The notes below the pieces were generated by a model that was not told the DNA's origin, ran no database searches, and worked only from the letters and a program-made list of their open reading frames with translations. Position numbers and translations under genes: made by a program. Positions 4,458 through 45,151 of a stretch of 64,000 nucleotides of DNA are shown piece after piece. The stretch comes from an uncultured Planctomycetia bacterium (GTDB lineage Bacteria; Omnitrophota; Gorgyraeia; 1-14-0-20-64-10): the NCBI GenBank assembly GCA_964372395.1, contig CAYJQV010000005.1, forward strand, positions 126-64,125, read 5' to 3'. Positions within the stretch are counted from its first letter, which is position 1, and each line of letters starts with the position of its first letter.

Positions 4458-4859
4458 CTAGAGGGAACGCCAGAAAAGCGAGGGCGGAACAATCTTGATT
4501 CCCCGGACTTCCTTAAGATCCAGGAGATCCCGATCTCCTGTCACCAGAAGATCTGCGTGGACAGCTAAGGTAAGCCAGAGAATCGGCAGGTCTTTGGGAT
4601 CCGGACAGACAAGAGCCTTCCTGGCCGGAGGATCCAGAACCTGACAGACACCTTGAAGCCAACGCTGGACGCGTTCCCGCTCCTGCTTCGTCGCTCCGAT
4701 CTTGTGGGCAAGAACCCGATCGATCTCTCCCAGGATGTAAGGGGAAATGAATACCTCGCAGGAGCCGAGGGCTTCCTCAACGACATCCTTCGACGACCCT
4801 GAGGCAACAAGCGCTGCGATCCAGACGTTGCTATCAAAGACTACCCTGAAAACCGGCAC
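4458..4859 (-). CDS. vapC: PIN-domain toxin (VapC family)
   Basis: 133 aa; N-terminal VVFDSNVWIAAL and conserved acidic residues characteristic of the PIN fold; immediately downstream of a small RHH gene. Confidence 0.7.
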   Translation of the reverse strand: MPVFRVVFDSNVWIAALVASGSSKDVVEEALGSCEVFISPYILGEIDRVLAHKIGATKQERERVQRWLQGVCQVLDPPARKALVCPDPKDLPILWLTLAVHADLLVTGDRDLLDLKEVRGIKIVPPSLFWRSL

Positions 4860-5165: not shown

Positions 5166-8100
5166 CTAGAGGTTCCCGCCGAGCGTGTCGGTGTCGGCGG
5201 CGATCTCCTCGAATACCGCGGGCAGCGAGGCCTCCTCCATGCCGGCAAGAGCCATGAGGAGCTGGCCCAGGCTCTCCGGCGCGAAGATGATCTCGTTCAA
5301 GCCCCCGCCGACACTGAAATCGAACCGCGTCCGTCCCACGGTCGCCGTGCCCAGCTCCCCCGCAGCCGCCGGGACCACCTCACCGAGCATCCATTGCTCC
5401 TCGGCAACCGCCGAGGGCCGCGCCCCCAGCCGAACGGTCGGCACCCCTAATCCGAGGGCGTCGAACCGATCCCCCTGATCCTCCCAGAGCATCTGGGCGA
5501 CTGGAATTCCCCGGTCTGTGAGGGAACGGGAAACCCCCACCGCGCCGGGGAACAGCAGGATCGGCCCCGGAGCCCTCCGCGATTCTTCCTCCTCCATCCC
5601 GGCGGCGACAGGAACAGGCAAGACGTTGACCTGGGTGCGGAAGAGGTTGCCGAGAAGCTCCTTGCGGGAGGGATCGCGCCCGCGCTCCTCCTCCCTTCGC
5701 TCCCGCGAGAGGGTGTCGGCGGCTGTCCCCAGCCGCGCTGCCTCCGCGGGAGGATACCCCAGGAGGTTTCCCAGTCGGAAGGCGGCGATCGCCGCGTGAG
5801 TGGCGCCGCTGGTGTAGGTGAGCCGCAGGACCGGCGAAGGAAGGACCTGAACCCGAGCCCTGTCGTTCACCAGCACCAGCCCGCCTGCCCTCACCGGGAT
5901 CAGCCACTCGCGGATGCCGTGAGTCCGACGGAGAGTCTCGGCCTGTGCCGCCGCCTCCTCGGGCCGGTAGCGGAGGGCCCTGCCAGACGTTCCCAGGAAA
6001 TTGGCGAGGGTTTCCTGCGCGGTGATGAACAGGTCGGGCCCCACCTCCTGAAAGCGGGTCCGGGTGGATGAATCCCAGGAGGCGTTGGCCTCCACGATCG
6101 TGGGGAAGCCCCTTCCCTTCGCCCACCGGGCCTCTTCCACCTGGGCATGGTTCGAGGGCTCATCCACCAGCCGCTCACCCAACGCCAGATGTGGAACAGG
6201 CCGTCCCTCCTTTTCAGCTCGCGCCGCCTCCTCCTCCATGACGCGTCGGACTTCCTGAGCCGCTTCCCGGATTGCCTCCGGAGGAAGTGGAGTTCCTACA
6301 CCAACCAGCCGCCTCTCCGCACCGGAATCGCTGGCCACCATGAGACTGACCCGCGAGGATTGACCATCCTTTCGGAGAATAGGCTCGATGGTGACGCCCT
6401 TGCCGCGCAGGGTCTCCACAATCGCCTCACCGGTTTCACCGCCCACCACCGCCACCAGCTCCGCGGGGGCTCCCAGGGCATGGGTCGCCTGCACAAGGTT
6501 CGGGGCAAAACCGCCCGGATGGAGACGCACGGCAAGCTGCTTGGTTCCATCGGCCCGGGTCTTCACTGAAACGACAAGGTCGAGTGTCCCGTTTAAGCTC
6601 AGACCCACGAGGGTCGGAAGCCTCTCCTCCCTTTCGGCAGCTCTTTCTGGCGGAGGGGGAATTTCCTTTTCCAATCTCACCAGATGGGGGAAACGCTCCG
6701 CGTACATCCGGACCAGCCGGAAGGCCTGCTGGGTAAGCTGATCGCGGCTCTCGCCCAAGCGCCCGAAGGCCTCCACGGTACGATGGCTCCAGCGTCCGAT
6801 CCTCTCGAATAGCTCGATGAGTTGGCCCAACTGCCGGGGCTCGCGAATCTCATTGAGCGTGCGGAGGGCGCTCCGGACCTCCTCATCCGCATCGGCATTC
6901 AGCGGCCGGTCGCCGGGCTGTGCCCGAAGGCGGGCAAGGACCTGGGCGATCCCCGGGTGATCCCACGGAAGGCCGATCCGCTCGTAGGCTTTGATGAGGC
7001 GAGCCTCCAGGAAACGGTCCTCAAAGATCTCCCGCCGGGAGATGAGCAGGATCCTGCGAATCTCCATCAGCCCCATCTTCACGTCCAGGACCGGACGGCC
7101 CTGACGGACCAGGGGGCGGGACCTGTCGTAGCGGGCGCGGTGCTCCCGGGCAGGGTCGGTCTGGTTGACGAGGCCAAACCTCTCCATCTCTTCCCAGCCC
7201 ATCAGGCGGAACTGCCCCGGGGAAAGCTCCGCCACCCAGTAATCCCGGTCTGCCAGGGGCTTGGCGTAGTCGTCCGACGGCCTCCACCTTTGGTCGCCCG
7301 CGGGAGGCACCGGCTCCGCCAGGTTCCTTGGGGTGATGAAGAGCCTTCCTAAGCCATCTTCTCCCACAACTCCCCAGACGTTGTACTCGGTCAGCGCCAC
7401 CCCCGGTTCCTTCAGCCAATCCAGGATCTGGCTGGCCCGGGCGATCATCGCATCCTGCTCGGCCCGGGTGCCCTGGCCTTCCAGGACAAAGGTGGTCATG
7501 CCGGGATTCTTGAGGATCCCCACCCGGATCCCGCGCAAAAGGAAAAACCACTCGATCTCATCATCCCCGGGATTGTCCATCGGCATCCTCCAGGGGATTC
7601 CATGCAGATGCGCCCACTCGGGGAGGCTGGCCGCCGCCTTGAGGGCGATGTTGCCCCCGACCACCGTGCCGATCCCCCTCTGCAGCCACATCTCCCGCAC
7701 CGCAGCCCGGATCGGCTCGGCCCACCGGGCCTGATCCACCTGCTGAGCGACCGGCATGGTGAAGTGTCTCCAGGTATAGCCGTAGGGGCTCAAGCGGTAG
7801 TCGACGGGGTTATCCAGATCCTTCGCAAACCCCGGCAGGGTTCTCTGCCGGAGGGTCTCGATCCGGTCCCCCACGACAAACCGGATGGGATGCGCGTCAT
7901 CCAGCGGATGGGGAGCCTGCTGGCCCGGCTCGGGCGCAGGAGGTTTCGGGGTATTGGCCCGATTGGGGTTGAACATGATGTCCACCGGCCCGTCGGGCAA
8001 GACCCCCACCCTGTACTCGGTGCCGGTGAAGAAGTCCCGCTTCTGCACGTCCACCGCCTGCTGCTGGGCGACAAAGGCCTGCACCGCCTCGGCAGGGGAG

Positions 8101-9146
8101 ATCTTTCCCCGGCTGACCAGCTCATTCAAGCGGGGAGCCCGCTGATCCCGGGAGATCACCTTGCCGGTCACCACACCCTGGTTGGCCAGCGTGAGCTGCC
8201 CGGCTGCCTCGTCCAGACCCCTCTGTGCACGGGCCAGCTCTTCAGCATCTCCAACTCGGGCAGCCGCCTCAGCCCGCTCCTTTGCCTGCAAGAAGGCCTG
8301 TCGTGCATTCTGCTGCGCAAGGGCGAGCTCCTGCTCCCCATCCTCGACCCCGATGTCCCGCAGACGGCCGGTGGGCTCCGAGAGAACCTGCGAGGGATTG
8401 GGCGGCCGGATCCGAATCCGCCCCGCCGGATCCAGGCGATACCACTGGTTGTTCCAAAAGAGCTCCACCGTGAAGGAATGATCGCCAACGTACTCCGGCT
8501 TGGCCTCCAGGCGCCCCTCGAACCGGACCCAGCCGTCCGGCCAGACATTGCGCACCTTCATGCCGATCGTCTTTTCCTTCACCACAATCCTTCCTCCGTC
8601 TCCTGAAAAGATCGAAAGCTGGATCTGCACCCGTTTCGGGATGTACGGGGCGAGCTCCTGCTTGATCCTCCCGCGCAAGACGGGGCTGACCCCTTCGCCG
8701 GGCCTCACTCCCTTGAAATAGAGGTCGCCGGAGTCCAGGCTCCCGTCGCCCGGCAGTTGCCTCACCAAGTCCTGAAGAGCAGGCGGAAGCTGCGAGACCC
8801 GGATGGAGGCGAAGAAACGCTGATACTGAGGCGGCCCGCCCCGCGTCCCCATGATGGTCATGCGGGGGAGCCGCTCCCCGCCGAACGGAACCACGTCTCC
8901 CCCGTCCTTCCAGACGAGCTGTGCCGGCGGCGTATCCGGATCCTCCGGCTCCGGGAAGGTCATCTCCTCCATGCCGGAGCGGAGGAGGTTCTGCCCCTCG
9001 GTGTCCTGGATGCGGCGCAGGGTGGCTGGCTCGTCCGAAAGGGCCCAAGCCGGGATGGGATCTCCCAGAAGGAGGGAGAGGATGAGAGGGCCGCTGAGAG
9101 CCGGTTTCAGGAACCGGCCTGGCTTTTCTATCGGCTTCTGAAGCAT
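5166..9146 (-). CDS. Large secreted multidomain protein of unknown function with C-terminal degenerate PfkB/ribokinase-like domain
   Basis: About 1,329 aa from an internal Met (MLQKPIEKPGRFLKPALSGPLILSLLLGDPIPAWALS = signal-peptide-like). The C-terminal third has PfkB-family landmarks, HPGGFAPNLVQA (cf. GGKGANQA) and TYTSGATHAAIAAFRLG (cf. DTTGAGDAFxGAF), with the catalytic Asp replaced. The remainder has no recognisable motifs. Confidence 0.5.
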   Translation of the reverse strand: MLQKPIEKPGRFLKPALSGPLILSLLLGDPIPAWALSDEPATLRRIQDTEGQNLLRSGMEEMTFPEPEDPDTPPAQLVWKDGGDVVPFGGERLPRMTIMGTRGGPPQYQRFFASIRVSQLPPALQDLVRQLPGDGSLDSGDLYFKGVRPGEGVSPVLRGRIKQELAPYIPKRVQIQLSIFSGDGGRIVVKEKTIGMKVRNVWPDGWVRFEGRLEAKPEYVGDHSFTVELFWNNQWYRLDPAGRIRIRPPNPSQVLSEPTGRLRDIGVEDGEQELALAQQNARQAFLQAKERAEAAARVGDAEELARAQRGLDEAAGQLTLANQGVVTGKVISRDQRAPRLNELVSRGKISPAEAVQAFVAQQQAVDVQKRDFFTGTEYRVGVLPDGPVDIMFNPNRANTPKPPAPEPGQQAPHPLDDAHPIRFVVGDRIETLRQRTLPGFAKDLDNPVDYRLSPYGYTWRHFTMPVAQQVDQARWAEPIRAAVREMWLQRGIGTVVGGNIALKAAASLPEWAHLHGIPWRMPMDNPGDDEIEWFFLLRGIRVGILKNPGMTTFVLEGQGTRAEQDAMIARASQILDWLKEPGVALTEYNVWGVVGEDGLGRLFITPRNLAEPVPPAGDQRWRPSDDYAKPLADRDYWVAELSPGQFRLMGWEEMERFGLVNQTDPAREHRARYDRSRPLVRQGRPVLDVKMGLMEIRRILLISRREIFEDRFLEARLIKAYERIGLPWDHPGIAQVLARLRAQPGDRPLNADADEEVRSALRTLNEIREPRQLGQLIELFERIGRWSHRTVEAFGRLGESRDQLTQQAFRLVRMYAERFPHLVRLEKEIPPPPERAAEREERLPTLVGLSLNGTLDLVVSVKTRADGTKQLAVRLHPGGFAPNLVQATHALGAPAELVAVVGGETGEAIVETLRGKGVTIEPILRKDGQSSRVSLMVASDSGAERRLVGVGTPLPPEAIREAAQEVRRVMEEEAARAEKEGRPVPHLALGERLVDEPSNHAQVEEARWAKGRGFPTIVEANASWDSSTRTRFQEVGPDLFITAQETLANFLGTSGRALRYRPEEAAAQAETLRRTHGIREWLIPVRAGGLVLVNDRARVQVLPSPVLRLTYTSGATHAAIAAFRLGNLLGYPPAEAARLGTAADTLSRERREEERGRDPSRKELLGNLFRTQVNVLPVPVAAGMEEEESRRAPGPILLFPGAVGVSRSLTDRGIPVAQMLWEDQGDRFDALGLGVPTVRLGARPSAVAEEQWMLGEVVPAAAGELGTATVGRTRFDFSVGGGLNEIIFAPESLGQLLMALAGMEEASLPAVFEEIAADTDTLGGNL

Positions 9147-9260
9147 GGAGTTAGGGTGGACAAAAAAACGCCGCTCGGCGCTTGCCGGAAGTATGCCACA
9201 GGATCGCCACAGCGGCAAGGTGAAGTTGAGCTAAGTTTATTTGATTAACGCGGCCTCTGC

Positions 9261-9674
9261 CTAATCCAGCAGATCCAAGAAGCGGGCGGGATCGGCCATC
9301 TCAACGGAGCGGAATCTTCCGATGCCCAGGAGTGCCGCATCCCCCGTGATCAGATAGCGGACACCGGCGGTCACGGCGCAGGCGAGGAATTTGACGTCAT
9401 CCCGTTCAACCCCGGCGGGCGGACCGGCTCGCAGAGGAACGTCCTCAACCACCTCGGCGTAAGGCAGGACGATCTCCTCAATGACCTGCCTCACCTCGCG
9501 AGGGGAGAGCTGCAGCTTCGGATAGCTCAGGACGTGCAGGTATTCCCGGACGATTCCCCGCGAGACGACCGGGCGCATCCGATCCGCCATCCACGCCTCC
9601 ACGACCCGGCGTGTGGTCGTGCCCCGCCGGATTGCAGCCACCAGGACGTTGGTGTCAACGACGGCACGGATCAA
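9261..9674 (-). CDS. vapC: PIN-domain toxin (VapC family)
   Basis: 137 aa; MIRAVVDTNVLVAAI...; the PIN acidic-residue pattern; a 4-nt overlap with the upstream antitoxin gene. Confidence 0.7.
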   Translation of the reverse strand: MIRAVVDTNVLVAAIRRGTTTRRVVEAWMADRMRPVVSRGIVREYLHVLSYPKLQLSPREVRQVIEEIVLPYAEVVEDVPLRAGPPAGVERDDVKFLACAVTAGVRYLITGDAALLGIGRFRSVEMADPARFLDLLD

Positions 9675-10055: not shown

Positions 10056-13000
10056 TCAGCGTGCCGGCAGGCCGGCCTTGGCCTGGGGGGCGCCGGCGGC
10101 CGCCTCGAGCTGGACCACCTCCTTCTTCGGAGAGACCTTCCAGAAGAGGGGCAGAGCGTTTCCCCAGTCGGACAGAAGCTCCTCCGCCCGACGGCTTCCG
10201 GTGAGCTCCCGGTGCCGGAGGATCATCGATTTGAGCAGGTTCTGGTCCTCCGGATCCTCCACCCGGTGAAGCTCGACGAGGGCCGGGTTGAGCTGTTTGG
10301 GGAAGAGCTCCTCCGGATCGAGAACGAAGGCCTCCCCGCCGGTCATCCCGGCGCCGAAGTTCCGGCCGGTGGGGCCCAGGACGACCACGAGGCCGCCGGT
10401 CATGTACTCGCAGCCGTGATCCCCCAGCCCCTCGACCACCGCACGGGCACCGGAGTTGCGCACGCAGAACCGCTCGCCGGCCCGGCCGGCCACGCAGAGG
10501 GTTCCGCCGGTGGCGCCGTAGAGGACGGTGTTGCCCGCCAGCACAAGCTCCTCGGAATGAGCCGGGATCTTCGGATTCGGACGGATTCCGATCTCCCCGC
10601 CGTGCATCCCCTTGCCCACGTAGTCGTTGGCGTCTCCGGTGAGCAGCAGGCGAATCCCGGAGATGAGAAAGGCGCCGAAGGACTGCCCCGCTGAGCCGGA
10701 AAGCTGCACCTCGATCGAAGCGCCGGCGGGGAGCCCCTGGTCGCCATAGCGGAGGGCGATCCCGTGCGACAGCCGCGTCCCGATGGAACGCTGGTGGTTC
10801 TTCACCGGATAGCGGAGCGTGACCCGCGCCCTGCCCTCGAGGGCGGGCCGCGCCTCGGCCAGGATCTCTTCATCGAGCGGGGTATCCCCCTCCCGGTCGT
10901 TGCGGGAGACGATCCGGCGCCGCGGGCGTTGCCGGCTGGGATCCGGGTCGGCCAGAAGCGGGGACCAGTCGATCGTCGCCCACTTGGGGTTCTCCTTGGC
11001 CTTCGGCCTGACGGCCAGGAGATCCACCCGGCCGATCACCTCGTCCAGCGAGCGGTACCCGAGCTGCGCCAGGATCCGGCGCACCTCCGTCGCCACGAAG
11101 GTGAAGAAATTCACCACGAAGTCCGGCGGGCTCTTGAACTTGGCGCGCAGCTTCGGATCCTGGGTCGCCACGCCGACCGGGCAGGTGTTGAGGTGGCACT
11201 GCCGCACCATGCAGCAGCCGGCCGCCACGAGGGCCGCGGTCCCGAAGTTGAACGACTCGGCACCCAAAAGAGCCGCCACGACCAGGTCCCGCCCGGTCTT
11301 CATCCCCCCGTCGGTGCGGACCGCGATCCGGCCGCGCAGGTCGTTCATCACGAGCACCTGTTGGGTCTCCGCCACCCCCATCTCCCAGGGGGCGCCGGCG
11401 TTCTTGATGGAAGAGAGGGGGCTGGCTCCGGTTCCGCCGTCGTGGCCGGCGATGTGCACGACGTCGGCATAGCCCTTCGCCACCCCGGCGGCGATCGTCC
11501 CCACGCCGGCCTCGGCCACGAGCTTCACGCAGACCTCCGCCTGGGCGTTGGATGCCTTCAGGTCATAGATAAGCTGCGCCAGGTCCTCGATCGAGTAGAT
11601 GTCGTGGTGCGGCGGCGGGGAGATCAAGGTGACGCCGGGAATGGAGTGGCGGATCCTGGCAATCTCCTCCGAGACCTTGTGGCCGGGGAGCTGGCCGCCC
11701 TCGCCCGGCTTGGATCCTTGCGCGATCTTGATCTCCAGCTCCCGCGCCGAGGAAAGATACGCGGGCGTGACCCCGAACCGGCCCGAGGCCACCTGCTTGA
11801 TGGCGCTGTTGGCGGAGTCGCCGTTGGGCAGCGGCTTGAATCGGACCGGATCCTCGCCCCCCTCGCCGGAGTTGGACTTGCCGCCGATCCGGTTCAGGGC
11901 GATGGCCAGGCACTCGTGGGTCTCGCGTGAGAGGGCCCCGTGAGACATGCCAGCGGTGCAGAAGCGCCGGCGGATCGACTCCACCGGCTCCACCTGATCG
12001 AGCGGGACCGGACCGCGGTCCGACTTGAAATCCAACAGGTCCCTCAGGCAGATCGGCTCCCGCCCGTTGACGGCCGCAGCGTACTTCTCGTAGTCGGCCC
12101 ATTCGCCGGAGTGGACCGCCGTGTGCAGGGCATCCAGCACCACGGGATTGAAGGCGTGGCTCTCCCCGTCCCTCCGGAACCGGTAGAAGCCGCCCGGCTC
12201 CAGCGCCGCGGCGGCCGGTTCCGCTCCGGTCCCTGCCGCCTGCGGCCCGTACCCCGATGCGTGCAGCGCCAGGACGTCCCTGGCGAGCAGATCGAAGCCG
12301 ATCCCGCCGATCCGGGAGACGGTGCCGGTGAAGCAGGCTTCGATCACCTCGTTTCCCAACCCGATCGCCTCGAAGATCTGCGCACCCCGGTAGCTCGAGA
12401 CGCAGGAGATCCCCATCTTGGACATGATCTTGAGGATCCCATCCTCGACCGATTTCTCGTAGTTGGCGTAAGATTGCTCCAGCGTCACCCCCTTGATCGT
12501 GCCCTTGGCGTGCGCCCAGGCGATCGCCTGCAGCGCGCCGTAGGGATGGATGGCCGCGGCGCCGTACCCGATCGCCAGCGCGTAATGGTGGATGTCCCAC
12601 GCCTGCGCGGTCTCGCAGACCAGGGAGGCCCTCATCCGCTTGCCGCGCCGGATGAGGTTGTGGTGCACCGCCCCCACCGCCATCTGCAACGGCATCGCCG
12701 CTTGTTCGGCGCTCATCCCGCGGTCGGTGAGGATGAGGATCGTGTGCCCGGCGTCCACCGCGGCGGCCGCCGTTTCACAGAGCCGCCCCAGCGCCTTCTC
12801 CAACCCCGCCGGCCCGTCCGAAACCGGAAAGAGGATCGGGATCCGGATCGATCGGAAGGCCGGGTCGCGGAGCCCCTCGATCCAGGCGAGCTCCGGCTCC
12901 GAGAGGGCCGGCGAGCCGAACTTGATCCACCGGGCGTGCTCGGGGCTCTCCTCCAGAATCGAGCCGCGCGCGCCGAGGGCGGTGTTGAGCGACATGACGA

Positions 13001-14663
13001 GCCTCTCCCGCAGCGGGTCGATCGCGGGATTGGTGACCTGCGCGAAGAGCTGCTTGAAGTAGGCGGCCAGGATCCGCGGACGGGTGGAGAGGATGGCCAG
13101 CGGCGCGTCATCCCCCATGGAGCCCACCGGCTCCTTGCCGGTCTCGGCCATCGCCTTGACGATGAACTGCAGATCCTCCTGGGTGAGGCCGACGGCCCTC
13201 AGGCGCCTCAGAAGCTCCGCCTCGGCGCCGGGCGCGGCTGCGGCATCCGGCGCCGTCACCGGGGGCTTGCCCTCGTTGAGCTTCAGGAGATCCGGCCGGA
13301 GCATGTTGGAATGAACCCAGGCGGCGTACGGCTTTCGCTCGGCCAGCTCCTGTTTGATCTGGTCGTTCCGCAGCACCCGCTTGCGCGCGGTGTCCACCGC
13401 CAGCATCTGGCCGGGCCCCAGCCGGCCCGACTCGATCACCTGCGCCTCGTCGATATCCACGATCCCGACCTCCGATCCGAGGACCACGAGCCCGTCCCGC
13501 GTGATCTTGTACCGCGCCGGCCGCAGGCCGTTCCGGTCGAGGGCCGCCGCCGCGATCACCCCGTCGGTGATGGCCAGCGCCGCCGGGCCGTCCCACGGCT
13601 CCGACAGGCACGCCTGGAATTCAAAGAAGGCCTTCGTCTTCTGGTCCATGCCCGGCATGTTCTGCCACGCCTCGGGAACCAGGATTGTCATCGCATGGAG
13701 CAGCCCATAGCCGGACGAGACCAGCAGCTCCAGCGCGTTGTCCAGCATGGCCGAGTCGGATCCGCCCGCCTGGATCACAGGAACCAGGTCCTGGATCCGG
13801 CCTCCCCAAACCGGGGACTTGAGCTCCGGCTCGCGCGCCCGCATCCAGTTCCGGTTGCCCAGGAGGGTGTTGATCTCCCCGTTGTGGCCCAGGTACCTGA
13901 ACGGCTGGGCCAGGATCCAGTTGGGGAAGGTGTTCGTGGAATAGCGCTGATGGAAAAGCGCGATCGCCGTCTCGAAGGCCGGGTCGGTGAGATCCTCGTA
14001 GAAGTGGTTGAGCTGCGGGGCGACGAGGAGCCCCTTGTAGACGATCGTCCGCGAGGAGAAGGAGGGGATGTAGCACTCCTCCAGGCGCGCCTGGGCAAAG
14101 GCCTTCTCGATGAGCCGCCGCGTGTAGTAGAGGTGCCGCTCGTAATCAAAACCGTAACCGGGGTCTGACCCCGCGGGGTCAGACCCCCTCAGGTTTTCGC
14201 CTTTTCGATTTGGCTTCCCGACCAGCAGGTGCTGGATCGTCGGCATGGTGGCCAGCGCCCGCTCTCCGAGCGCGTCCGGGTTGACCGGCACCTCGCGCCA
14301 GCCGTACAGGGTCAGGCCCTGTTCGCGCATGATCCGCTCGGCGATCCCCTTCGCGGAGAGCCGGGCACTCGGGCTCTGCGGGAAGAAGAAGACGCCGACG
14401 GCCAGATCCTGGACGTTGGCCTTGCCGTTGCCGCAGCCCAGCCGGGCCAGCTCGCGGGCAAACAGCTTCCGGGGGATCTGCGTCAACACCCCCGCCCCGT
14501 CGCCGGACTTGCCGTCTGCCGAGACCGCACCCCGGTGGGTGACACAGCAGACCCCCTGGATCGCCATCCGCAGGATCCGGTGGCTGGGCTTGCCCGAGAC
14601 ATCGGCCACAAAGCCGACCCCGCAGGAGTCCCGTTCGAATTCAGGTTGCCAAAGTGTCTTCAT
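10056..14663 (-). CDS. gltB: Glutamate synthase large subunit
   Basis: 1,535 aa; N-terminal amidotransferase CGVGFVA..., the FMN/Fe-S central domain and the C-terminal GXGXG beta-helix domain are all recognisable; contains an in-frame GSDPAGSDP insertion from a palindromic repeat (14160..14187). Confidence 0.95.
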   Translation of the reverse strand: MKTLWQPEFERDSCGVGFVADVSGKPSHRILRMAIQGVCCVTHRGAVSADGKSGDGAGVLTQIPRKLFARELARLGCGNGKANVQDLAVGVFFFPQSPSARLSAKGIAERIMREQGLTLYGWREVPVNPDALGERALATMPTIQHLLVGKPNRKGENLRGSDPAGSDPGYGFDYERHLYYTRRLIEKAFAQARLEECYIPSFSSRTIVYKGLLVAPQLNHFYEDLTDPAFETAIALFHQRYSTNTFPNWILAQPFRYLGHNGEINTLLGNRNWMRAREPELKSPVWGGRIQDLVPVIQAGGSDSAMLDNALELLVSSGYGLLHAMTILVPEAWQNMPGMDQKTKAFFEFQACLSEPWDGPAALAITDGVIAAAALDRNGLRPARYKITRDGLVVLGSEVGIVDIDEAQVIESGRLGPGQMLAVDTARKRVLRNDQIKQELAERKPYAAWVHSNMLRPDLLKLNEGKPPVTAPDAAAAPGAEAELLRRLRAVGLTQEDLQFIVKAMAETGKEPVGSMGDDAPLAILSTRPRILAAYFKQLFAQVTNPAIDPLRERLVMSLNTALGARGSILEESPEHARWIKFGSPALSEPELAWIEGLRDPAFRSIRIPILFPVSDGPAGLEKALGRLCETAAAAVDAGHTILILTDRGMSAEQAAMPLQMAVGAVHHNLIRRGKRMRASLVCETAQAWDIHHYALAIGYGAAAIHPYGALQAIAWAHAKGTIKGVTLEQSYANYEKSVEDGILKIMSKMGISCVSSYRGAQIFEAIGLGNEVIEACFTGTVSRIGGIGFDLLARDVLALHASGYGPQAAGTGAEPAAAALEPGGFYRFRRDGESHAFNPVVLDALHTAVHSGEWADYEKYAAAVNGREPICLRDLLDFKSDRGPVPLDQVEPVESIRRRFCTAGMSHGALSRETHECLAIALNRIGGKSNSGEGGEDPVRFKPLPNGDSANSAIKQVASGRFGVTPAYLSSARELEIKIAQGSKPGEGGQLPGHKVSEEIARIRHSIPGVTLISPPPHHDIYSIEDLAQLIYDLKASNAQAEVCVKLVAEAGVGTIAAGVAKGYADVVHIAGHDGGTGASPLSSIKNAGAPWEMGVAETQQVLVMNDLRGRIAVRTDGGMKTGRDLVVAALLGAESFNFGTAALVAAGCCMVRQCHLNTCPVGVATQDPKLRAKFKSPPDFVVNFFTFVATEVRRILAQLGYRSLDEVIGRVDLLAVRPKAKENPKWATIDWSPLLADPDPSRQRPRRRIVSRNDREGDTPLDEEILAEARPALEGRARVTLRYPVKNHQRSIGTRLSHGIALRYGDQGLPAGASIEVQLSGSAGQSFGAFLISGIRLLLTGDANDYVGKGMHGGEIGIRPNPKIPAHSEELVLAGNTVLYGATGGTLCVAGRAGERFCVRNSGARAVVEGLGDHGCEYMTGGLVVVLGPTGRNFGAGMTGGEAFVLDPEELFPKQLNPALVELHRVEDPEDQNLLKSMILRHRELTGSRRAEELLSDWGNALPLFWKVSPKKEVVQLEAAAGAPQAKAGLPAR
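14160..14187. repeat. Family-1 palindromic element pair GGGGTCTGACCCC-GC-GGGGTCAGACCCC (perfect 28-bp palindrome) inside gltB
   Basis: Read directly; translated in frame as ...RGSDPAGSDPG... within GltB. Confidence 0.85.
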
Positions 14664-14714
14664 GGTATCGATCTATCCTTACTGTAGATTGTAGCACGGC
14701 CGGGTGGACCCGGT

Positions 14715-16780: not shown

Positions 16781-17719
16781 CTAGCTCTCCAGGATCTTCG
16801 CGGCAGCCTGGTACACCTCCTCGGCCGGCAGCCACCGCATGCACTCGTGGCCGTACGGGCAGAGGGCCCGCTCGCAGGGTGCGCAGACCAGGGGCAAACG
16901 GACCACGCGTGAGCGGGGGCCGCGCGGCCCGTACTTCCTCTCGTCCGTCGGGCCAAAGATCGCCACCGTCGGGACCCCCATGAGATCCGCCGCGTGCAGG
17001 CCGGCGCTGTCGTTCGTGATGACCAGCGCCGTCCGCGCCAGAAGCGCCGCCAGCTGCCGCAGCGAGGTCTGCCCGACGAGATCGGTGGCCCGCCCGCGCA
17101 TCGCTGAAGCGACCTCCTGCGCGATCGGCCGCTCCGATTCCTCGCCGACGAGGAGGATCTGCGCGGAGATCTCGCGGATGAGCCGGTCCGCCACCTCGGC
17201 GAAGCGCGGAGCGGGCCAGCGCTTCAGGTGGCTGCGCGCACCGGGAACCATCACCACGGGACGGAGCCCGGCCGAGAGCTGCGCCTGAACCCACGCCTCC
17301 TCCTCGGGCCCGAAGGGCAGACGAACGGCATCCCCGCCCGCGCCGATCCCCAGCGACCGGACCAGCGCCAGGTGACTCTCTGTACGGTGCATGCCGGATC
17401 GGTCCTGCCCGCGCCAGAGCGGCGTCCGGCGCCCGGCCGGAATGAGAAAGGGGATCAGGGAATGCCTGAAGTCCACCACCCAGTCGAATCGGACGCGCGC
17501 CAGACGGAAGATCAAAGCGGCCTGGCGGATCAAAGAGGCCCGCTTCTCCCAGATCCAGACCCGGTGCACGCGCGGGTCCGCCTCGAACAGCTCCCGGGTC
17601 CTGGGGGAAGCCAGCAGATGAAACTCGGCGGAGGGCCGCGCCCGCCACAGTGCCCCGATGGCCGGGTAGGTCAGGAGGGCATCGCCCAGATTGCTCAGAC
17701 TGATGATCAGAAACCTCAT
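16781..17719 (-). CDS. Glycosyltransferase family 9 (heptosyltransferase)
   Basis: 312 aa; MRFLIISLSNLGDALLTYPAIGAL..., ...ITNDSAGLHAADLMGVPTVAIFGPTD; ATG overlaps the stop of the upstream GT9 gene (ATGA). Confidence 0.75.
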   Translation of the reverse strand: MRFLIISLSNLGDALLTYPAIGALWRARPSAEFHLLASPRTRELFEADPRVHRVWIWEKRASLIRQAALIFRLARVRFDWVVDFRHSLIPFLIPAGRRTPLWRGQDRSGMHRTESHLALVRSLGIGAGGDAVRLPFGPEEEAWVQAQLSAGLRPVVMVPGARSHLKRWPAPRFAEVADRLIREISAQILLVGEESERPIAQEVASAMRGRATDLVGQTSLRQLAALLARTALVITNDSAGLHAADLMGVPTVAIFGPTDERKYGPRGPRSRVVRLPLVCAPCERALCPYGHECMRWLPAEEVYQAAAKILES

Positions 17720-18834
17720 GGGGTCTGACCCTCCGGGGTCTGACCCTCCGGGGTCTGACCCTCCGGGGTCTGACCCTCTGGGGTCTGACCCTCTGGGGTC
17801 TGACCCCGGTTCAAAAGCCGTGCGGCCTGCTCCAACACCTCCTCCACCGCGATCTGATGCATGCAGAGGTTCACCGGGCAGTGCAGGCGGTAGCAGGGAA
17901 CCGGACAGCCGATGGAGCCGAAGAGGACCGCCGTGCCCTGCCCAGCCGGTGGTCCGGTCAGCTCCGGCTTCGTGGGCCCGAACAGCCCGATGACCGGGAT
18001 GCCGACGGCTGCACCCAGGTGCAGCGGCCCGGAATCGTTGGAGAGGAGCAGCCGCGCGTGCGCGAGAAGCGCCCCCAGCTCGCGAAAGCTCGTCCGGCCG
18101 GCGGCCGCGAGCGCCGGCCCGCGCATCCTGCCCCGGATCTCCTCAACCAGAGCCCGATCCCCTTCCCCTCCGACAAAGAGCACGCGCGCGCGGAATCGGT
18201 CCCTCAAGTCATCCGCCAGGCGGGCGAAGTTTCCCGCCGGCCACCGCTTGAGCCGCCAGTTGGCGCCGGCGTGCAGGGCGACCAGCGGCTCCCCTTCTTC
18301 CACCCCGAGCTCCCGCAGGAGGCGCTCCGCCGCGTCCCGGTCCTCCCGGCGGATCCCGATCTCGTACTGCATGCCGTCACGCCGGATTCCGTCCGCCTCC
18401 ACCATCCGCAGAAACCATTCCGCCTTGTGGATCGAATCGGGCGCAGGAGGATCGGCCGCCGTGGTGAGCAGCCATCCCCGCTTCCACGTCCGGTAGCCGA
18501 CCCGGTGCGGAATACCGGCGGCCCGGACCCAGAGCGCCCGGGTGAGGGAACGGTGGAAGAGATACGCGGCATCGAACCGCTCCTCCCGCAGCCGGCGGAT
18601 GATCCTCCCCCAGCGGAAAAGGTTCGGCAGGCCCCGGACCTCCTCCAGCAGGATCACCTCATCCAGGTTCGGATTGCCCTCCAGGAGATCCAGCCCCCGC
18701 GGGGGAACCAGGCAGGCGATGAAGCTGTCCGGGTGCGCCCGGCGGATCGCCCGGATCGCCGGGGTCATGAAGAGGAGGTCCCCCAGCCAGTTCACTGCCA
18801 CGATCAGGATCCGTTTACGAGAGGGCGCCGGCAT
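17716..18834 (-). CDS. Glycosyltransferase family 9 (heptosyltransferase II-like) with C-terminal (GQTPE)n repeat tail
   Basis: 372 aa; ILIVAVNWLGDLLFMTPAIRAI..., ...LSNDSGPLHLGAAVGIPVIGLFGPT; the last 30 aa are GQTPE x6 encoded by the 15-bp tandem repeat at 17720..17807. Confidence 0.75.
   Translation of the reverse strand: MPAPSRKRILIVAVNWLGDLLFMTPAIRAIRRAHPDSFIACLVPPRGLDLLEGNPNLDEVILLEEVRGLPNLFRWGRIIRRLREERFDAAYLFHRSLTRALWVRAAGIPHRVGYRTWKRGWLLTTAADPPAPDSIHKAEWFLRMVEADGIRRDGMQYEIGIRREDRDAAERLLRELGVEEGEPLVALHAGANWRLKRWPAGNFARLADDLRDRFRARVLFVGGEGDRALVEEIRGRMRGPALAAAGRTSFRELGALLAHARLLLSNDSGPLHLGAAVGIPVIGLFGPTKPELTGPPAGQGTAVLFGSIGCPVPCYRLHCPVNLCMHQIAVEEVLEQAARLLNRGQTPEGQTPEGQTPEGQTPEGQTPEGQTP
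17720..17807. repeat. Tandem array, about 6 copies of the 15-bp unit GGGGTCTGACCCTCC (family-1 repeat core)
   Basis: Direct repeats 17720-17734, 17735-17749, 17750-17764, 17765-17779, 17780-17794, 17795-17807; they encode the C-terminal tail of the GT9 gene and abut the start of the next GT9 gene. Confidence 0.9.
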
Positions 18835-30338: not shown

Positions 30339-31265
30339 TCATCGCGCCCGGCTGAATCCGCGGCCGGCCACCTGCCGGACCGCCCCCTTGAGCTCCAGGC
30401 CGGTCAGCACCGCCAGGAGCTGGGTCGGCGGCAGGGTGGTCGTGCGGGCGATCTCCTCCAGATTCGCGGCGGACCCCACCGGCACCGCCTCAAACACCCG
30501 CCTCTCCTCCTTGGAAAAGGTGGGGTCAGACCCCGTAGGGTCAGACCCCGTAGGGTCAGACCCCACCGGGTTGCGGCGTACCTGGTACCGGAGTTGAGGG
30601 GCGAGCTCTTCCAGAACATCCGCGACGCTCTCCACGAGGCGGGCTCCGTCTCTGATCAGGGCGTGCGTGCCCCTGCTTCTTTCCGAGGAGACCGGGCCGG
30701 GCACCGCGAACACCTCGCGGCCCTGCTCCAGGGCGTGGCGGGCCGTGATCAGCGCCCCGCTCTTCAAGGGGGCCTCCACCACGATGACGCCCAGGCTGAT
30801 GCCGGCGATCACCCGGTTGCGCTGGGGGAAATGCCAGGGCCGCGGCTCTGCCTCCATGGGAAACTCGGAGAGGAGACAGCCGTTTCCCGCGATCCGCTGC
30901 GCGAGCTTGCGGTGCTGGGGCGGGTAAAGATGGGCGAGCCCATGACCGACCACCGCAACGGTCCGGCCCCCGGCCTCCAGCGCCCCCTCGTGGCCGGCTG
31001 CGTCAATCCCCTCCGCCAGGCCGGAGACCACCGTGATCCCGCACCCGGCCAGATCCATCGCCAGCCGCCGGGCGGTCTCCAGGCCGTACGGGCTGGCTGA
31101 GCGGGTTCCCACGATGGCCACGGCGGCCGCATCCTCCGGAAGCAGCGTCCCCTTGACGTACAGGATCGCCGGGGGATCATGGATCTTCCGCAGCAGATCC
31201 GGGTAATCCGGATCCTTCAGGGTCAGCTCCCTCACCTCCGCAGAGAAGGCCTTCGGCCTATCCAT
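30339..31265 (-). CDS. dprA: DNA processing protein A (Smf)
   Basis: About 308 aa from the internal Met; Rossmann-like AIVGTRSASPYGLETARRLAMDLAGCGITVVSGLAEGIDAAGH and a C-terminal winged-helix region; contains an in-frame (GSDPT)3 insertion from the repeat at 30532..30574. Confidence 0.85.
   Translation of the reverse strand: MDRPKAFSAEVRELTLKDPDYPDLLRKIHDPPAILYVKGTLLPEDAAAVAIVGTRSASPYGLETARRLAMDLAGCGITVVSGLAEGIDAAGHEGALEAGGRTVAVVGHGLAHLYPPQHRKLAQRIAGNGCLLSEFPMEAEPRPWHFPQRNRVIAGISLGVIVVEAPLKSGALITARHALEQGREVFAVPGPVSSERSRGTHALIRDGARLVESVADVLEELAPQLRYQVRRNPVGSDPTGSDPTGSDPTFSKEERRVFEAVPVGSAANLEEIARTTTLPPTQLLAVLTGLELKGAVRQVAGRGFSRAR
30532..30574. repeat. Family-1 repeat: GGGGTCAGACCCC followed by two GTAGGGTCAGACCCC units, inside dprA
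   Basis: Direct repeats read from the sequence; flanked by an 11-bp direct repeat GACCCCACCGG (30482-30492 and 30569-30579). Confidence 0.85.
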
Positions 31266-32901: not shown

Positions 32902-33708
32902 TCAGCGCGCTCCCAAGCCCAACAGCCCCAGGTACCATCGGATCATCTCGTTCCCCCAGAAGACCGCCGCCAGGGTCCCCAGCGCCAGGAACGGACCGTA
33001 GGGGATGAGATCCTTCCGATACCGCACCTTGAGGATCACCCCCACCACCGCCCCGACGACCGGCGCCAGGATGAAGTTCACGAGGAGCACCTTCCCGGTT
33101 CCGATCAGGGATCCCACCATCGCCATGAGCTTCACATCCCCGAAGCCCATTGCCTCCTTCCGGAAGATCCATTTTCCGATGACACCAATCCCCCACACCG
33201 TCCCCGCCCCCGCCAGGGCCCCTGCCACGGAAGCGATCAGCCCCTCCCATCGGCCGGCGGCGCCGTGCAGCTCCGGCACGTAGAAGCTCAGGATGACGCC
33301 GATCGAGATCCCCGGCAGCGTGATCTCATCCGGCAGGATCATCTCCCTCAGATCCACCATCGCCAGCACGATGAGCGCCGCCCCGAAGAGGGCATAGACC
33401 AGCGCCAGCGCCGTGAGCTGAAACCGCCAGGCCACCCCCGCCAGCAGGATCCCCGTGGCCAGCTCAACAAACGGATAGCTCCAGGAGATCCCGGCCCCGC
33501 AGTGCCGGCAGCGCCCCTTGAGCAGCGCAAAGCTCACCAGCGGGATGTTGTCGTACCAGCGAATCGTCCCGCCGCAGCTTCGGCAATGGGAGCGGCCCTT
33601 GACGATCTGCTCCTGCGCCGGCAGGCGCCAGATGCAGACGTTGAGGAACGACCCGACCGCCAGCCCGAACAGAAAAACTGCGCTAATCGCGAGCGGCGAA
33701 ATCCCCAT
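32902..33708 (-). CDS. pilD: Prepilin peptidase (A24 family, type IV pilus / T2SS leader peptidase)
   Basis: 268 aa; N-terminal zinc-binding [30 protein letters not shown] and a polytopic membrane domain with the conserved Asp pair. Confidence 0.85.
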
Positions 33709-34596: not shown

Positions 34597-34662
34597 AGGG
34601 GACGCTCCATAAAGGGACACACCTCCTCGCTGCGGACGCCGCAGCCATCCACCCCACCAGAC

Positions 34663-34706
34663 TGTCCCAAAGTGGAGCGTCCCCAATTCACAAAGTGGAG
34701 CGTCCC
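34663..34706. repeat. Tandem direct repeat, 2 x 22 bp (AAAGTGGAGCGTCCCCAATTCA)
   Basis: Two perfect adjacent copies in the leuA-aroE intergenic spacer; an inverted partner GGACGCTCCA lies at 34601-34610. Confidence 0.8.
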
Positions 34707-34710
34707 CAAT

Positions 34711-36249
34711 TCAAGGGTTCGGGTGCGCCCGCCGCCTTTCCTTCCGGGCGTGCAGGTGCCGGTTGATCGCCGCCAGGTACGCCCTGGCCGAGGCCTCCAG
34801 GATGTCGGTGGCCGCCGACCGGCCGTGCTCGACCCTCCCGTTGGCGGACAGCTTCACCGCCACCTCCCCCAGCGCATCCTTCCCGGAGGTGACCGATTGA
34901 ATCCCGTAATCCTCCAGCCTCCCCCGGAAACGGGTCAGGCGGTCAATGGCGTTGTAGATCGAGTCCACGGGGCCGTCCCCGCTGGCCGCCCCCTCGAGCC
35001 GCTTCCCATCGGAGCTCTTCAGCCGGACCGTGGCCGTTGGGATGAGGCCGGTTCCGCTGGAGACGTGGAGGTACTCGAGGGCATAGCGCTGCGGCACCTC
35101 GGAGATCTCATCCTCCACCAGCGCCGAGAGATCGTCATCGAAGACCTCCTTCTTCTTGTCCGCCAGCGCCTTGAACCGCGCGAACGACTGCTCCAGCTGG
35201 CGCGGGGTCAGCGAGAAGCCGAGCTGCCTGAGCCGCTCGACAAAGGCATGCCGGCCCGAGTGCTTGCCCAGCACCAGCCTCGACTCGCCGTAGCCGACCT
35301 CCTCCGGCCGCATGATCTCGTACGTCTTGCGGTGCGCCAGAACCCCGTGCTGGTGGATCCCCGATTCGTGGGCGAAGGCGTTGCCGCCCACGATCGCCTT
35401 GTTCGGCTGGACCAGGAACCCGGTCAGCTTCGAGACCAGGCGGCTCGCCCGGTAGATCTCCGGGGTGTTGATGCGGGTCTCCACCTTGAAGAGATCCTTC
35501 CGGACCTTGAGCGCCATCACCACCTCTTCGAGACTGGCGTTCCCTGCCCGCTCCCCGATGCCGTTCACCGTGCACTCCACCTGCCGGGCGCCGTTCTTCA
35601 CCGCCGCCAGGGAGTTCGCCGTGGAGAGCCCCAGGTCGTTGTGGCAGTGGACGGAGATCACCGCGCGGCCCACGTTCGGGACCTTCTCGCGGATCGAGCG
35701 GATGAGCTCCCCGAAATGGCTGGGGATCGCCCACCCCACCGTGTCGGGGATGTTGACCGTGGTGGCGCCCACCTCGATCACCGCCTCCAGCACCCGGTAC
35801 AGGAAGTCCGGCCGGGTCCGGGCCGCGTCCTCCGGCGAGAACTCCACGTCGTCGGTGTACCGGCGCGCCAGCTTCACCCCCGCCACCGCCAGCCGGAGGA
35901 TCTCATCCTCCGCCTTCCTCAGCTTGTACTTCATGTGGATCTCGGAGGTGGCCACGAAGGTGTGGATCCGCTTCCTCCGCGCGGATTTCAGCGCCCTCCC
36001 CGCCGCCTCGATGTCCTTCGGGACCGCGCGGGCGAGGCTGGCGATGACCGGCCGCCGGACCTCGCGCGCGATGAGACCCACCGCCTGGAAATCGCCGGGC
36101 GAGGAGACGGCGAATCCGGCCTCGATCACGTCCACCCCCAGCCGGTCCAGCTGCCGGGCGATCTCCAGCTTCTGCTGCGGGTTGAGCGACGCGCCCGGGC
36201 ACTGCTCCCCGTCCCTCAGCGTCGTATCGAAGATGATCACCCGATCCAT
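34711..36249 (-). CDS. leuA: 2-isopropylmalate synthase (or (R)-citramalate synthase)
   Basis: 512 aa; [39 protein letters not shown] and a C-terminal LeuA-dimer regulatory domain. Confidence 0.85.
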
Positions 36250-39794: not shown

Positions 39795-39821
39795 GGGGTC
39801 TGACCCCGCCGGGGTCAGACC
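39795..39821. repeat. Family-1 palindromic element pair GGGGTCTGACCCCG-C-CGGGGTCAGACC at the ilvD stop codon
   Basis: The ilvD TGA stop (39815-39817 rc) lies inside the right arm of the element. Confidence 0.8.
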
Positions 39822-41479
39822 TCAAGCACCGCTCCCTCGCTGGCCGAGCCAACGAGTCTCGCGTAGCGCGCCATGACGCCGGTCTTGTATTTCGGCGCGG
39901 GCGCCTTCCACTTCTTCAGGCGGATCTTGAGCTCCGCCGCAGTGAGATCCACATTCAACCGGCGCTTCTTCACGTCCACGGTGATGAGGTCCCCATTCTT
40001 CACCGCGGCGATCGGGCCGCCCACCGCGGCCTCCGGCGCCACATGCCCTGCCATCAGCCCGTGCGTCGCCCCGGAGAACCGCCCGTCGGTCAGCAGGGCC
40101 ACGGAGCTGCCCAGGCCCTCCCCCACCATCGCGCCGGTGACCGCGAGCATCTCCCGCATGCCGGGGCCTCCCTTCGGCCCCTCGTAGCGGATCACCACCA
40201 CGTCCCCCTTCCTGATCCTGCGGGCCTTGACCGCGGCGAAGGCATCCTCTTCACAGTCGAACACCCGCGCCGGGCCCCGGAAGAGCAGCTTCTGTTCTCC
40301 CGCCACCTTCAGCACGCATCCCTCAGGAGCCAGGTTCCCCCGCAGGATCGCCAGCCCCCCGCTCTTCTTCAAAGGGCTCGCCAGCGGGCAGACCACCTTC
40401 TGGCCTGAGGTCTCCCTGGCCAGGGCCGCCTCCTCGCCGATCGTGCGGCCGGTGACGGTGAGAGCCTTCTTCCTCAAGAGCCCCGCATCCAGCAAGCGCT
40501 TGGCCACCAGGCGGATCCCGCCCGCTCGGTGCATGTCCGGCGCGGTGAAACGCCCCCACGGCTTCATGTCCGCCCAGATCGGAGTGCGTCGGCTCACCCT
40601 GTCAAAATCACCGATCGAAAGCGTCACCCCCGCTTCCCTCGCCAGCGCCAGAAGGTGCAGCACCCCGTTCGTCGATCCGCCGGTGGCAACAATGCTAGCG
40701 ATCGCATTCTCAAAGGCCCCCCGGGTCAGGATCCGGCGCGGGGTCGGTCCCTTCCGGACCAGCTCCATCGCCAGCCGGCCCGCCTCGTAGGCGGCCCGGT
40801 CCTTCTCCGGGTCCATCGCCGGGATGGAGTTTGTCCCCATCGGAGAAATCCCCGAGAGCTCCATCGCTGTGGCCATGGTGTTGGCGGTAAACTGCCCGCC
40901 GCAGGCCCCCGGCCCCGGACAGGCGCTCTTCTCCAGCTCCAGAAGCTGCTTCTGGCTCATCCGTCCCGCCGCGCAGGCCCCCACCCCCTCGAACACGTCC
41001 TGGATCGTTACATCCCGTCCCTCGAACCGGCCCGGGGCGATCGAGCCGCCGTAGATCATCAGCCCCGGCAGATTCACCCGGGCCAGCGCCATCACGGTCC
41101 CCGGAATCGTCTTGTCGCAGCCGGAGATCGCCACCAGTCCGTCGAACAGGTGCCCTCGCGCCACGAGCTCAATCGAGTCGGCCACCACCTCGCGGCTCAC
41201 CAGCGAGCACTTCATCCCCTCCGTGCCCATCGAGATCCCGTCCGAGACTGAAACGGTGTTGAACTCGATCGGCACCCCGCCCGCGTCGCGGACCCCCCGC
41301 TTCACCTGCTCCGAGAGCCGCCGCAGATGGAAATTGCACGGCATCACCTCGGTCCAGGTGTTGGCCACCCCGATCAGCGGCTTGTCGAAGTCCGCATCGG
41401 ACAACCCAACCGCCCGAAGCATGGCCCGCGCGGGGGCGCGGCTCAGCCCCTTCTTCAGCGCGTCGCTGCGGAGCTTCAT
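39815..41479 (-). CDS. ilvD: Dihydroxy-acid dehydratase
   Basis: 554 aa; CDKTIPG (Fe-S cysteine), [11 protein letters not shown] and the [10 protein letters not shown] signatures of IlvD/EDD. Confidence 0.95.
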
Positions 41480-44900: not shown

Positions 44901-45025
44901 GACGCAAGAACAAGAGCCGGACAGAGGAATGGCGTGACTGGGCAGAGGAGCTGCGTCAGCAGAAAACCAACGAGCGTCAGCCGGGCGATCCGGTGGTCGC
45001 GGCTGACTCTGCGGAACTTGGTCAT
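41912..45025 (-). CDS. Large secreted/membrane-anchored hypothetical protein (about 1,037 aa), no recognisable domains
   Basis: A long ORF with uniform coding character. Taking the internal Met gives a signal-peptide-like N-terminus (MTKFRRVSRDHRIARLTLVGFLLTQLLCPVTPFLCPALVLASD) with an AGGA 4 nt upstream; alternative ATGs lie at 45052 and 45076. An AT-rich promoter-like region follows at 45077..45151. Confidence 0.5.
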   Translation of the reverse strand: MTKFRRVSRDHRIARLTLVGFLLTQLLCPVTPFLCPALVLASDTLRPQPASEGKSRTGLEEALRPEGNPAAGMEESSAAELHRIFEAAGLPDVEIAADVLRDPALWRDGVREIPRLLQQRPVVLEEVAAGKGAVQIGWGLQLELETFHGEPRFELVPLKAGKENPYAPLQGWVLEELWAGARSVQATELRLDENGVWYRTAENQDWQLLPALFLPRGTWLFLSDRKLELLLSVPLPDGDAWRELVWLLDPRTLRLNIPPLGSKGAVQSPVRLRGPGGRLQHLRGHVDAVETMARGRSRPLRFQVRSAGPIRRDPGAILGRTKAEVLLHYWREGGALRPGPFGWNRPAIERLLNEWFGPDGWELVHLVEGRPLSKEEALGLYEEAYYVYFRDHPEELEELIRSASDVYDTALSNRDSGTDYARQETAAEHLQDIAIRRVIQRLGRRFQGPEPLRIRGPRSAGFRWNPGKVPFHRPELILQPALSGWWEPGSIEDFYQSSRRLVLRSPARDAVSAFIRSMTSFIYRSMLSMEEVRRPFWLLPPEAFPRDEQGRPRAFTESEIRRILRELSEGFIASYEFLPGRFRGRGEMQAMQAIPAVLESNRRVIPDVEFIRSHVRHLPALWDAIRGRHSVPILLARDSLTVYEFGAYQAAVRGEPFQAHLIYQPGAPRESVSVRARDPVLDHTLKKTSAIWTDVVDLLRQRGILPEEAAGDPARRDQIYREFRGRFDEGVERLLREDPTVAVQASHLYRQFASANLPDGAPLLVVDTNAYGRTALFVASVIQRKAAEEGRRHTPEVLLGWARRKSVGIPELADEVEQVVGEPFHDLHWPFRYEGTDPESGEPVFAVTTNLAKLLLMAYQSMEIYNAAVGDTAGMEEVRAAEERVRATLHRLVSQPASRVGKQAVVVGPTIYRDAMPFLPALVEGALGELHPLIFFDPQIQGMARGELLEARAGWAAGLYGREIASATFLGSDAEFSDFQPFARHAGISVEPARDLSLADPVRFVVDLLKFLGVPLPDTGTQLRQQLDKELGLLIAA

Positions 45026-45151
45026 CCTATCGTCGGGCTCCGGACAATCCATGGAGGAAAAGCCGATGGTGCGCATCGGGTCCCGTATTAAAAGTTACTC
45101 GACAGCGGGCAGACTTTCAAGGAGAAATATCTTCCTATTTATTTCTGCTAA

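Follow-up and report, generated by a model that had tools for sequence, protein, structure and literature searches.

Repetitive extragenic palindromic (REP) sequences and their paired forms, the REPINs, are short GC-rich palindromes dispersed through bacterial genomes as inverted doublets with short spacers, as clusters and as copies at the 3' ends of genes (PMC3733652; PMC3116915). They are predominantly extragenic, often lying just 3' of genes; in-frame intragenic copies are also documented, most numerously in Opitutus terrae, a member of the PVC superphylum, and in Rickettsia conorii (Di Nocera et al. 2013, PMC3733652). Such intragenic REPs are often dimers or clusters encoding 20-80 amino acids, and their host genes include those for tRNA synthetases and repair proteins (PMC3733652). 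The systems formed by REPINs and REP-associated tyrosine transposases (RAYTs) are reported to persist vertically over long periods (10.1101/2022.05.22.493013). Here we analyse a window of 64 kb (the whole stretch of contig CAYJQV010000005.1 under study; 67% G+C, with about 92% lying within open frames of coding-like codon composition) from an Omnitrophota bacterium, in which a 13-nt palindrome, GGGGTC-W-GACCCC, occurs at five loci. A first-pass annotation of the window had proposed a dispersed palindromic repeat of the REP type or of the miniature inverted-repeat transposable element type, and we agree; its remark that colonisation of open reading frames (ORFs) is uncommon was overstated, since intragenic in-frame REPs, including those in tRNA synthetase and DNA repair genes, have been described (PMC3733652). 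We put the probability at about 60% that the element belongs to a REP/REPIN-type repeat family spread by a Y1 transposase of the RAYT type, with arrays that vary by slippage. The 13-mer is a REP-like family absent from the searchable literature, where a search for its sequence returned irrelevant primer matches only, but the kind itself, intragenic REPs included, is already known.

The repeat unit is far more frequent in the window than in shuffled sequence. Exact GGGGTCWGACCCC occurs seven times, against 0.02 expected from 100 dinucleotide-preserving shuffles, of which 0/100 reached seven; at two mismatches or fewer there are 19 occurrences (5.7 expected), and at one mismatch or fewer there are 15 units, every one of them within the five loci. 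These counts, together with direct reading of the sequence, bear out the annotated dispersal of a near-palindrome over five loci. Outside the loci we found three one-mismatch 11-mers, where 2.5 at one mismatch or better are expected anywhere in the shuffles. This is chance level: the unit is found perfect or not at all, and decayed copies form no visible population. The unit is a GC-clamped palindrome that takes the form of a single copy, an inverted doublet, a spacer doublet or a 15-bp tandem array. The orientation of each core is set by its central T/A only, and the inverted doublets have a gap of 2 nt in gltB, a gap of 3 nt at ilvD and a 32-nt spacer in cysS. Across 732 instances the edges of the core are sharp, with G rare at position -1 and C rare at position +1, and no other flank is conserved; extended palindromic flanks, such as CCAAA-core-TTTGG in cysS, are particular to each copy. 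Stable hairpins are predicted at 5/5 loci (-26 to -65 kcal/mol, z -2.7 to -5.8), and the period-15 arrays of the GT9 and dprA genes were found independently by Tandem Repeats Finder. No GTAG/CGTC tag is conserved among the 732 instances, and in the window GTAG arises only from the GTA spacer of two dprA units. A search of the element against Rfam matched no family. GGGGTCTGAC may resemble the end of the Tn3 inverted repeat, but nothing here depends on this.

Our preference for the REP/REPIN-type reading stems from the presence, in other metagenome lineages, of REPtrons built around the same 13-mer. Paired-core scans of public genomes and metagenomes, for which all figures refer to the matches listed only, place this 13-mer, with lineage-specific flanks, in many phyla. 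On three metagenome contigs, an ORF of 188-199 amino acids encoding a RAYT-like Y1 transposase has oppositely oriented GGGGTCWGACCCC doublets on either side, which is the layout of a REPtron (L237, 1235-1834; L275, 2090-2689; L273, 8515-9078). The L275 locus is a near-copy of L237, and the L273 protein is 68% identical in amino acid sequence. The L237 ORF matches the Pfam domain PF01797 (Y1_Tnp) with 27.6 bits, above the 23-bit cutoff, and in NCBIfam the L237 and L273 ORFs match one family only, NF047646 (REP-associated tyrosine transposase; E values of 1e-18 and 1e-15, respectively). The L273 contig also carries further dispersed T/A inverted pairs, with gaps of 3-4 nt, that resemble the pairs of the window. 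Three REPtrons among about 240 listed motif loci would fit a ratio of one transposase gene per about 100 repeat loci. Relatives of the RAYT-like protein encoded on plasmids do not exceed 42% identity and are not informative. Core and RAYT-like gene, side by side in these lineages, offer a concrete candidate for a transposase-substrate pair. In viral contigs the real motif had 20 loci and the control palindromes 41, 3, 0, 0 and 0; on these counts we do not claim a special status for the core.

Copies that lie in frame within genes are likewise found elsewhere. A tgt-like gene of the Omnitrophota genome NC_groundwater_845 (L115, 2411-3598) contains two in-frame T/A pairs, translated as MGSDPVGSDPV at the N-terminus and as TGSDPAGSDPK internally. 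In another Omnitrophota lineage (that of P0003; L120, 8199-9284), ispD and ispF form one fused ORF with a single core, read as RGQTP, exactly at the junction before MRVGIGFD, the start of IspF; an intergenic repeat may have bridged the two genes. Planctomycetia ORFs also contain copies. A marine beta-CASP/metallo-β-lactamase-fold gene from the TARA data (L235, 4390-5344) has two in-frame composites, each a T/A pair, 44 nt and a second T/A pair, flanked by a conserved TGAAAA...CTTCA that is shared with another locus (L293); the presence of this composite twice in a single gene argues for mobility.

In the window, the host genes of all five loci lie on the minus strand. Their identities were taken from precomputed Pfam matches on identical or orthologous contigs and from PDB matches; the CysS homologues carry the names Candidatus Omnitrophica or Omnitrophota, and an identical CysS is encoded by the metagenome-assembled genome (MAG) GCA_947085785.1. 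The gltB element (14160-14187, in the gene at 10056-14663) is a T/A inverted pair, GGGGTCTGACCCC-GC-GGGGTCAGACCCC, that is translated as ...RGSDPAGSDPG... in a surface loop of the amidotransferase domain and has a predicted hairpin of -31.2 kcal/mol (z -4.8). In the GT9 glycosyltransferase gene at 17716-18834, six tandem 15-bp units (GGGGTCTGACCCTCC/CT; 17720-17807) encode the C-terminal tail ...NR(GQTPE)5GQTP*; Tandem Repeats Finder reports a period of 15, 5.8 copies and 98% matches, and the array folds with -65 kcal/mol (z -5.8). The TGA stop of this gene and the ATG of the GT9 gene that follows (16781-17719) overlap. Within the last units of the array (17716-17740) there is a Shine-Dalgarno-like GGAGG about 10 nt upstream of the ATG of that downstream paralogue (17719), and the array and its hairpins could affect translational coupling with it. 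The dprA gene (30339-31265) contains three tandem 15-bp units (GGGTCAGACCCCGTA) at 30522-30564, about 10 bp away from the coordinates 30532..30574 that the first-pass annotation had assigned to them; they are translated as ...VGSDPTGSDPTGSDPTF..., that is (GSDPT)3, in the linker that joins the Rossmann domain to the winged-helix domain. In cysS (59646-61088), the element at 60793-60850 consists of a core, the 32-nt spacer and an inverted core, with the cores 45 bp apart. It is translated as ...RGLTPDSGELRDAAQRGQTPLDL..., the element itself being GLTPDSGELRDAAQRGQTP, in a variable loop after DDKIIERAR, and it folds with -43.7 kcal/mol (z -4.9). The fifth element, an inverted pair at 39795-39823 whose second copy, GGGGTCAGACCTC, has one mismatch, sits between ilvD and a downstream ilvB-like gene and is largely intergenic; IlvD ends in ...LEV*, and its TGA stop (39815-39817) lies inside the second core. 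The ilvD hairpin (-25.8 kcal/mol, z -2.7) lacks a U-tail and is therefore not a canonical intrinsic terminator.

Minus-strand translation of these genes shows that four of the five loci are indeed translated as part of coding sequence, as the first reading had it. The same reading took the stop-free frames as a sign of selection or targeting for in-frame insertion; this part finds no support, since all three frames are used and the stop of ilvD comes from the third. Of the six readings of the unit, GSDP is common to both strands, and the others are GLTP or GQTP and GV* or GVRP. Over the five loci the GSDP frame is used twice, the G(L/Q)TP frame twice and the GTC-TGA frame once, at the ilvD stop, while other lineages have ORFs with copies in the GVRP frame. 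In any inverted T/A pair the third frame has a TGA, which leaves only two frames that are survivable inside a gene. With about 92% of the window coding, four intragenic loci among five are what results if placement is random and purifying selection then acts, so that no frame-targeting mechanism is needed. GGGG...CCCC reads as Gly...Pro in all frames and on both strands, a loop-friendly composition that may be the reason why ORFs tolerate the unit. Searching a profile of synthetic pentapeptide arrays (GSDPx, GQTPx, GLTPx and GVRPx) against a protein database retrieved 18 candidates, none of them significant.

Comparison with homologues supports the earlier proposal of lineage-specific insertions, but with the qualifications that the insertions are not of a simple kind and that the CysS peptide does not belong to this genome alone. 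The GltB loop has its canonical short length in 91 of 120 homologues from many phyla, whereas the GltB of the window is 15 amino acids longer, and comparison with solved structures places about 13-15 extra residues exactly at the element. The loop is 16 amino acids longer in the sister species and 12 amino acids longer in a relative that is 76% identical, each time with unrelated sequence; in two other Omnitrophica GltB proteins it is short. A further dispersed repeat was considered as the source of the sister insert in gltB (CCGGTRCCWGGCGCC, present twice), and no further copies of it were found. The GT9 orthologue P0124, which falls in the same 90%-identity protein cluster, is 15 amino acids shorter and has an unrelated tail. 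The CysS segment is missing from most orthologues and is present, at the same site and in the same frame, in 12 of the 41 closest Omnitrophota CysS sequences, as a single core, a gap-2 pair or a long composite.

The sister species (GCA_964343105.1; loci L188-L191, about 94.5% nucleotide identity) contains no core in about 32 kb. At gltB and at the GT9 tail, a tract of about 100 nt is replaced there by unrelated sequence, and its cysS lacks the element. A separate difference between the two genomes is an extra DUF6036 gene (L191, 5593-6228) between the DUF3108 gene and gltB of the sister species, which the window (14664-14714) does not have. When the cysS of the window is compared with a sister-type allele (L121), the two are 93-100% identical outside nucleotides ~236-370 of the gene and 39-65% identical inside (60719-60853 of the window). 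This mosaic tract of about 135 nt comprises the element and about 75 nt on its 3' side, its 5' edge coincides with the element, and within it the window is nearer to distant lineages than to L121. The pattern is that of a recombination mosaic and indicates exchange of a short tract that has an edge at the element.

Variation is also seen between near-identical strains. Over 35.3 kb, GCA_947085785.1 differs from the window by two single-nucleotide polymorphisms and one indel, and this sole indel is one 15-bp dprA unit, of which the window has three and GCA_947085785.1 two. The dprA array is thus a coding variable-number tandem repeat (VNTR), with in-frame tandem units whose number varies between strains, and the anticipated copy-number polymorphism is real. 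As the only indel is a single repeat unit, the arrays behave as fast VNTRs. Of the GT9 array, the window has six units where the sister species has none.

The core is conserved to a greater degree than synonymous sites. At the cysS site shared by five lineages, whose proteins are about 60-65% identical, the cores match at 12-13 of 13 positions, while the central base switches freely between T and A. The glycine codons in the cysS cores are GGT in 10/10 cases, although GGT makes up 13% of the glycine codons of these genes. At conserved four-fold-degenerate residues of cysS the codons agree in 46% of cases, and identity over the 32-nt spacer is about 63-69%. The invariant GGT and the near-complete match of the core, set against diverged synonymous sites and spacer, indicate that the core is kept or renewed at the DNA level. 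One way in which this could come about is that the 13-mer is more than the REP of a single lineage: a recognition word, shared by many phyla and kept perfect at orthologous intragenic sites across deep divergence, whose maintenance and exchange are driven by conserved machinery, which could be a widely transferred RAYT subfamily of fixed specificity or an uptake or gene-conversion system; we regard this as a long shot. If it were true, housekeeping proteins of Omnitrophota and of other members of the PVC group would have their surface loops continually remodelled by short REP-bearing recombination tracts.

Several explanations that do without a RAYT have to be weighed against these data. DNA uptake sequences (DUS) of Neisseria and uptake signal sequences (USS) of Pasteurellaceae are short motifs that form inverted pairs at the ends of genes, lie within genes in frames that tolerate them and are conserved at orthologous sites. 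A DUS-like uptake motif, or a drive based on recombination or gene conversion, would keep the 13-mer perfect and spread it among related lineages through preferential uptake or recombination of the DNA that bears it, with intragenic copies settling where frame and loop tolerate them, and to this idea one can assign the conservation of core DNA at the orthologous cysS site, the cysS mosaic tract that starts at the edge of the element, the inverted pair at the end of ilvD, and the presence in the window of genes for DprA, a prepilin peptidase (32902-33708) and a PilT-like T2SSE ATPase (46998-48074). We nevertheless consider it unlikely: with about one locus per 13 kb the motif is far below the density of known USS and DUS, about one per kb; close relatives should share an uptake motif, yet the sister species is without it at 3/3 comparable loci and in the whole of the compared sequence; tandem 15-bp arrays are foreign to USS; and the same core flanks RAYT-like genes elsewhere. 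The palindrome might instead be immobile and selected in place, as the binding site of a dimeric protein or as an RNA hairpin acting on translation, mRNA decay or operon polarity. The sharp boundaries of the core, its conservation beyond synonymous sites, the very stable hairpins, the copy between two genes of one operon at ilvD and the GGAGG of the GT9 array immediately upstream of the next ATG are all compatible with such a function, which we think improbable given that the copies share no common context (loop, tail, linker and stop codon of unrelated genes), that close relatives lack them while their host genes are intact, that unit number differs between near-identical strains, and that there is neither an Rfam match nor a terminator tail.

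Independent local origin, through slippage, template switching or palindrome formation at GC-rich sites with mutational convergence, is very improbable. Slippage clearly changes the 15-bp arrays, and each copy has its own extended palindromic flanks, as in the CCAAA-core-TTTGG of cysS; but seven exact 13-mers, against 0.02 expected, cannot have arisen independently, and within other genomes the same doublets occur repeatedly, with flanks that are conserved and lineage-specific, and border transposase genes. The exact identity of the dispersed copies brings this explanation close to refutation. Selection at the level of the peptide, with GSDP and GQTP serving as flexible linkers and the DNA palindrome as a by-product, would account for the fact that every translated copy is rich in Gly and Pro and lies in a loop, linker or tail. 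It is the least plausible of the explanations that we considered, scarcely worth entertaining, as the DNA word is constant while the peptide varies with frame and strand (GSDP, GLTP, GQTP and EV*, with GVRP elsewhere), the rare glycine codon GGT is invariable and one copy is largely intergenic.

We return, then, to a REP/REPIN-type family. In such a family, a Y1 (IS200-like) transposase of the RAYT type, encoded once elsewhere in the genome, would spread the units as single-strand hairpins, and arrays would, once inserted, expand and contract in 15-bp steps through replication slippage, while homologous recombination would swap element-bearing and element-free alleles. Most insertions would hit genes because the genome is about 92% coding, and the survivors would be those that keep the frame, that stay clear of the TGA frame or, like the ilvD copy, provide the stop with it, and that are placed in loops, linkers or termini. 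Persistence in ORFs would follow from this high coding fraction together with the reading of GGGG...CCCC as Gly...Pro in every frame. We infer that a RAYT is present and active in this genome; membership of a RAYT-linked class is supported by the REPtrons of other lineages rather than by this genome. A number of observations weigh against the assignment. Neither the 64-kb window nor the Omnitrophota loci retrieved for comparison contain a RAYT or any other transposase, and the RAYT-like ORFs of the other lineages score 58-68 bits for NF047646, below its equivalog cutoff of 80. The element lacks the GTAG/CGTC tag of the REP superfamilies described so far, its conserved unit has 13 nt where a REP usually has 20-40 nt, and the 13-mer is identical across many phyla, whereas a REP and its RAYT normally diverge together. 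Set against the sister species, the loci show replacement of tracts of about 100-135 nt and not a clean insertion or empty site; with no clean pair of filled and empty sites, no insertion event has been caught and no target-site signature can be read. Lacking the tag, shorter and mostly intragenic, the element is therefore best filed as one that works like a REP/REPIN.

Measured against the described systems, the element is like REPs in having in-frame copies that encode 7 to more than 30 amino acids in housekeeping genes (PMC3733652), and like REP/RAYT systems in that the same repeat flanks a Y1-transposase gene, here in other lineages only. It is unlike them in that four of its five loci are intragenic, with only ilvD at a gene end, and none of the published intragenic REP peptides matches GSDP, GQTP, GLTP or GVRP (PMC3733652). 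Coding VNTRs resemble it in that the dprA and GT9 arrays shift by multiples of 15 bp and give protein length variants; they differ in that their repeats are specific to one locus, whereas the units here are copies of a palindromic element dispersed over several. Rickettsia palindromic elements (RPEs) are about 100-150 bp long and restricted to Rickettsia, and we know of no 15-bp arrays described for them. The present element has an Omnitrophota host, a unit of 13-58 bp and no shared sequence, a distinction from RPEs that is drawn by description and not by comparison of consensus sequences. Like RPEs, it places palindromes in frame in functional genes, where they are tolerated as extra surface segments (PMC3733652). 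Highly iterated palindrome 1 (HIP1) of cyanobacteria is a short exact palindrome that is over-represented in coding sequence and apparently maintained at the DNA level, as is the core studied here, but it has 8 bp and can exceed one copy per gene (PMC5861425). HIP1 is not known to form doublets or tandem arrays or to have an associated transposase.

With this analysis the Omnitrophota, a candidate phylum seen only as metagenome assemblies in the data examined, gain a REP-like family that had not been described. The analysis also shows that such repeats can reside in core genes (gltB, cysS, dprA and tgt) as translated loops. It further provides a clean case of strain-level variation in protein length caused by a 15-bp repeat unit. 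In the annotation of MAGs and in protein alignments, such segments should be treated as repeat-derived inserts and not as domain features.

Other features of the window may be mentioned briefly. The genes for DprA, the prepilin peptidase and the PilT-like ATPase are compatible with type IV pili and natural transformation. An ORF of 1054 amino acids (41912-45076) has no Pfam match, and another of 1350 amino acids (5166-9218), whose only Pfam match is a PfkB kinase domain, is bracketed by two PIN_3 toxin-like genes (4458-4859 and 9261-9674). In the intergenic gap between aroE and leuA, at 34668-34713, there is a perfect tandem duplication of 23 bp (two copies of CAAAGTGGAGCGTCCCCAATTCA, plus strand), and a partial copy of it, ggagcgtcccc, lies about 60 bp away at ~34597-34607.

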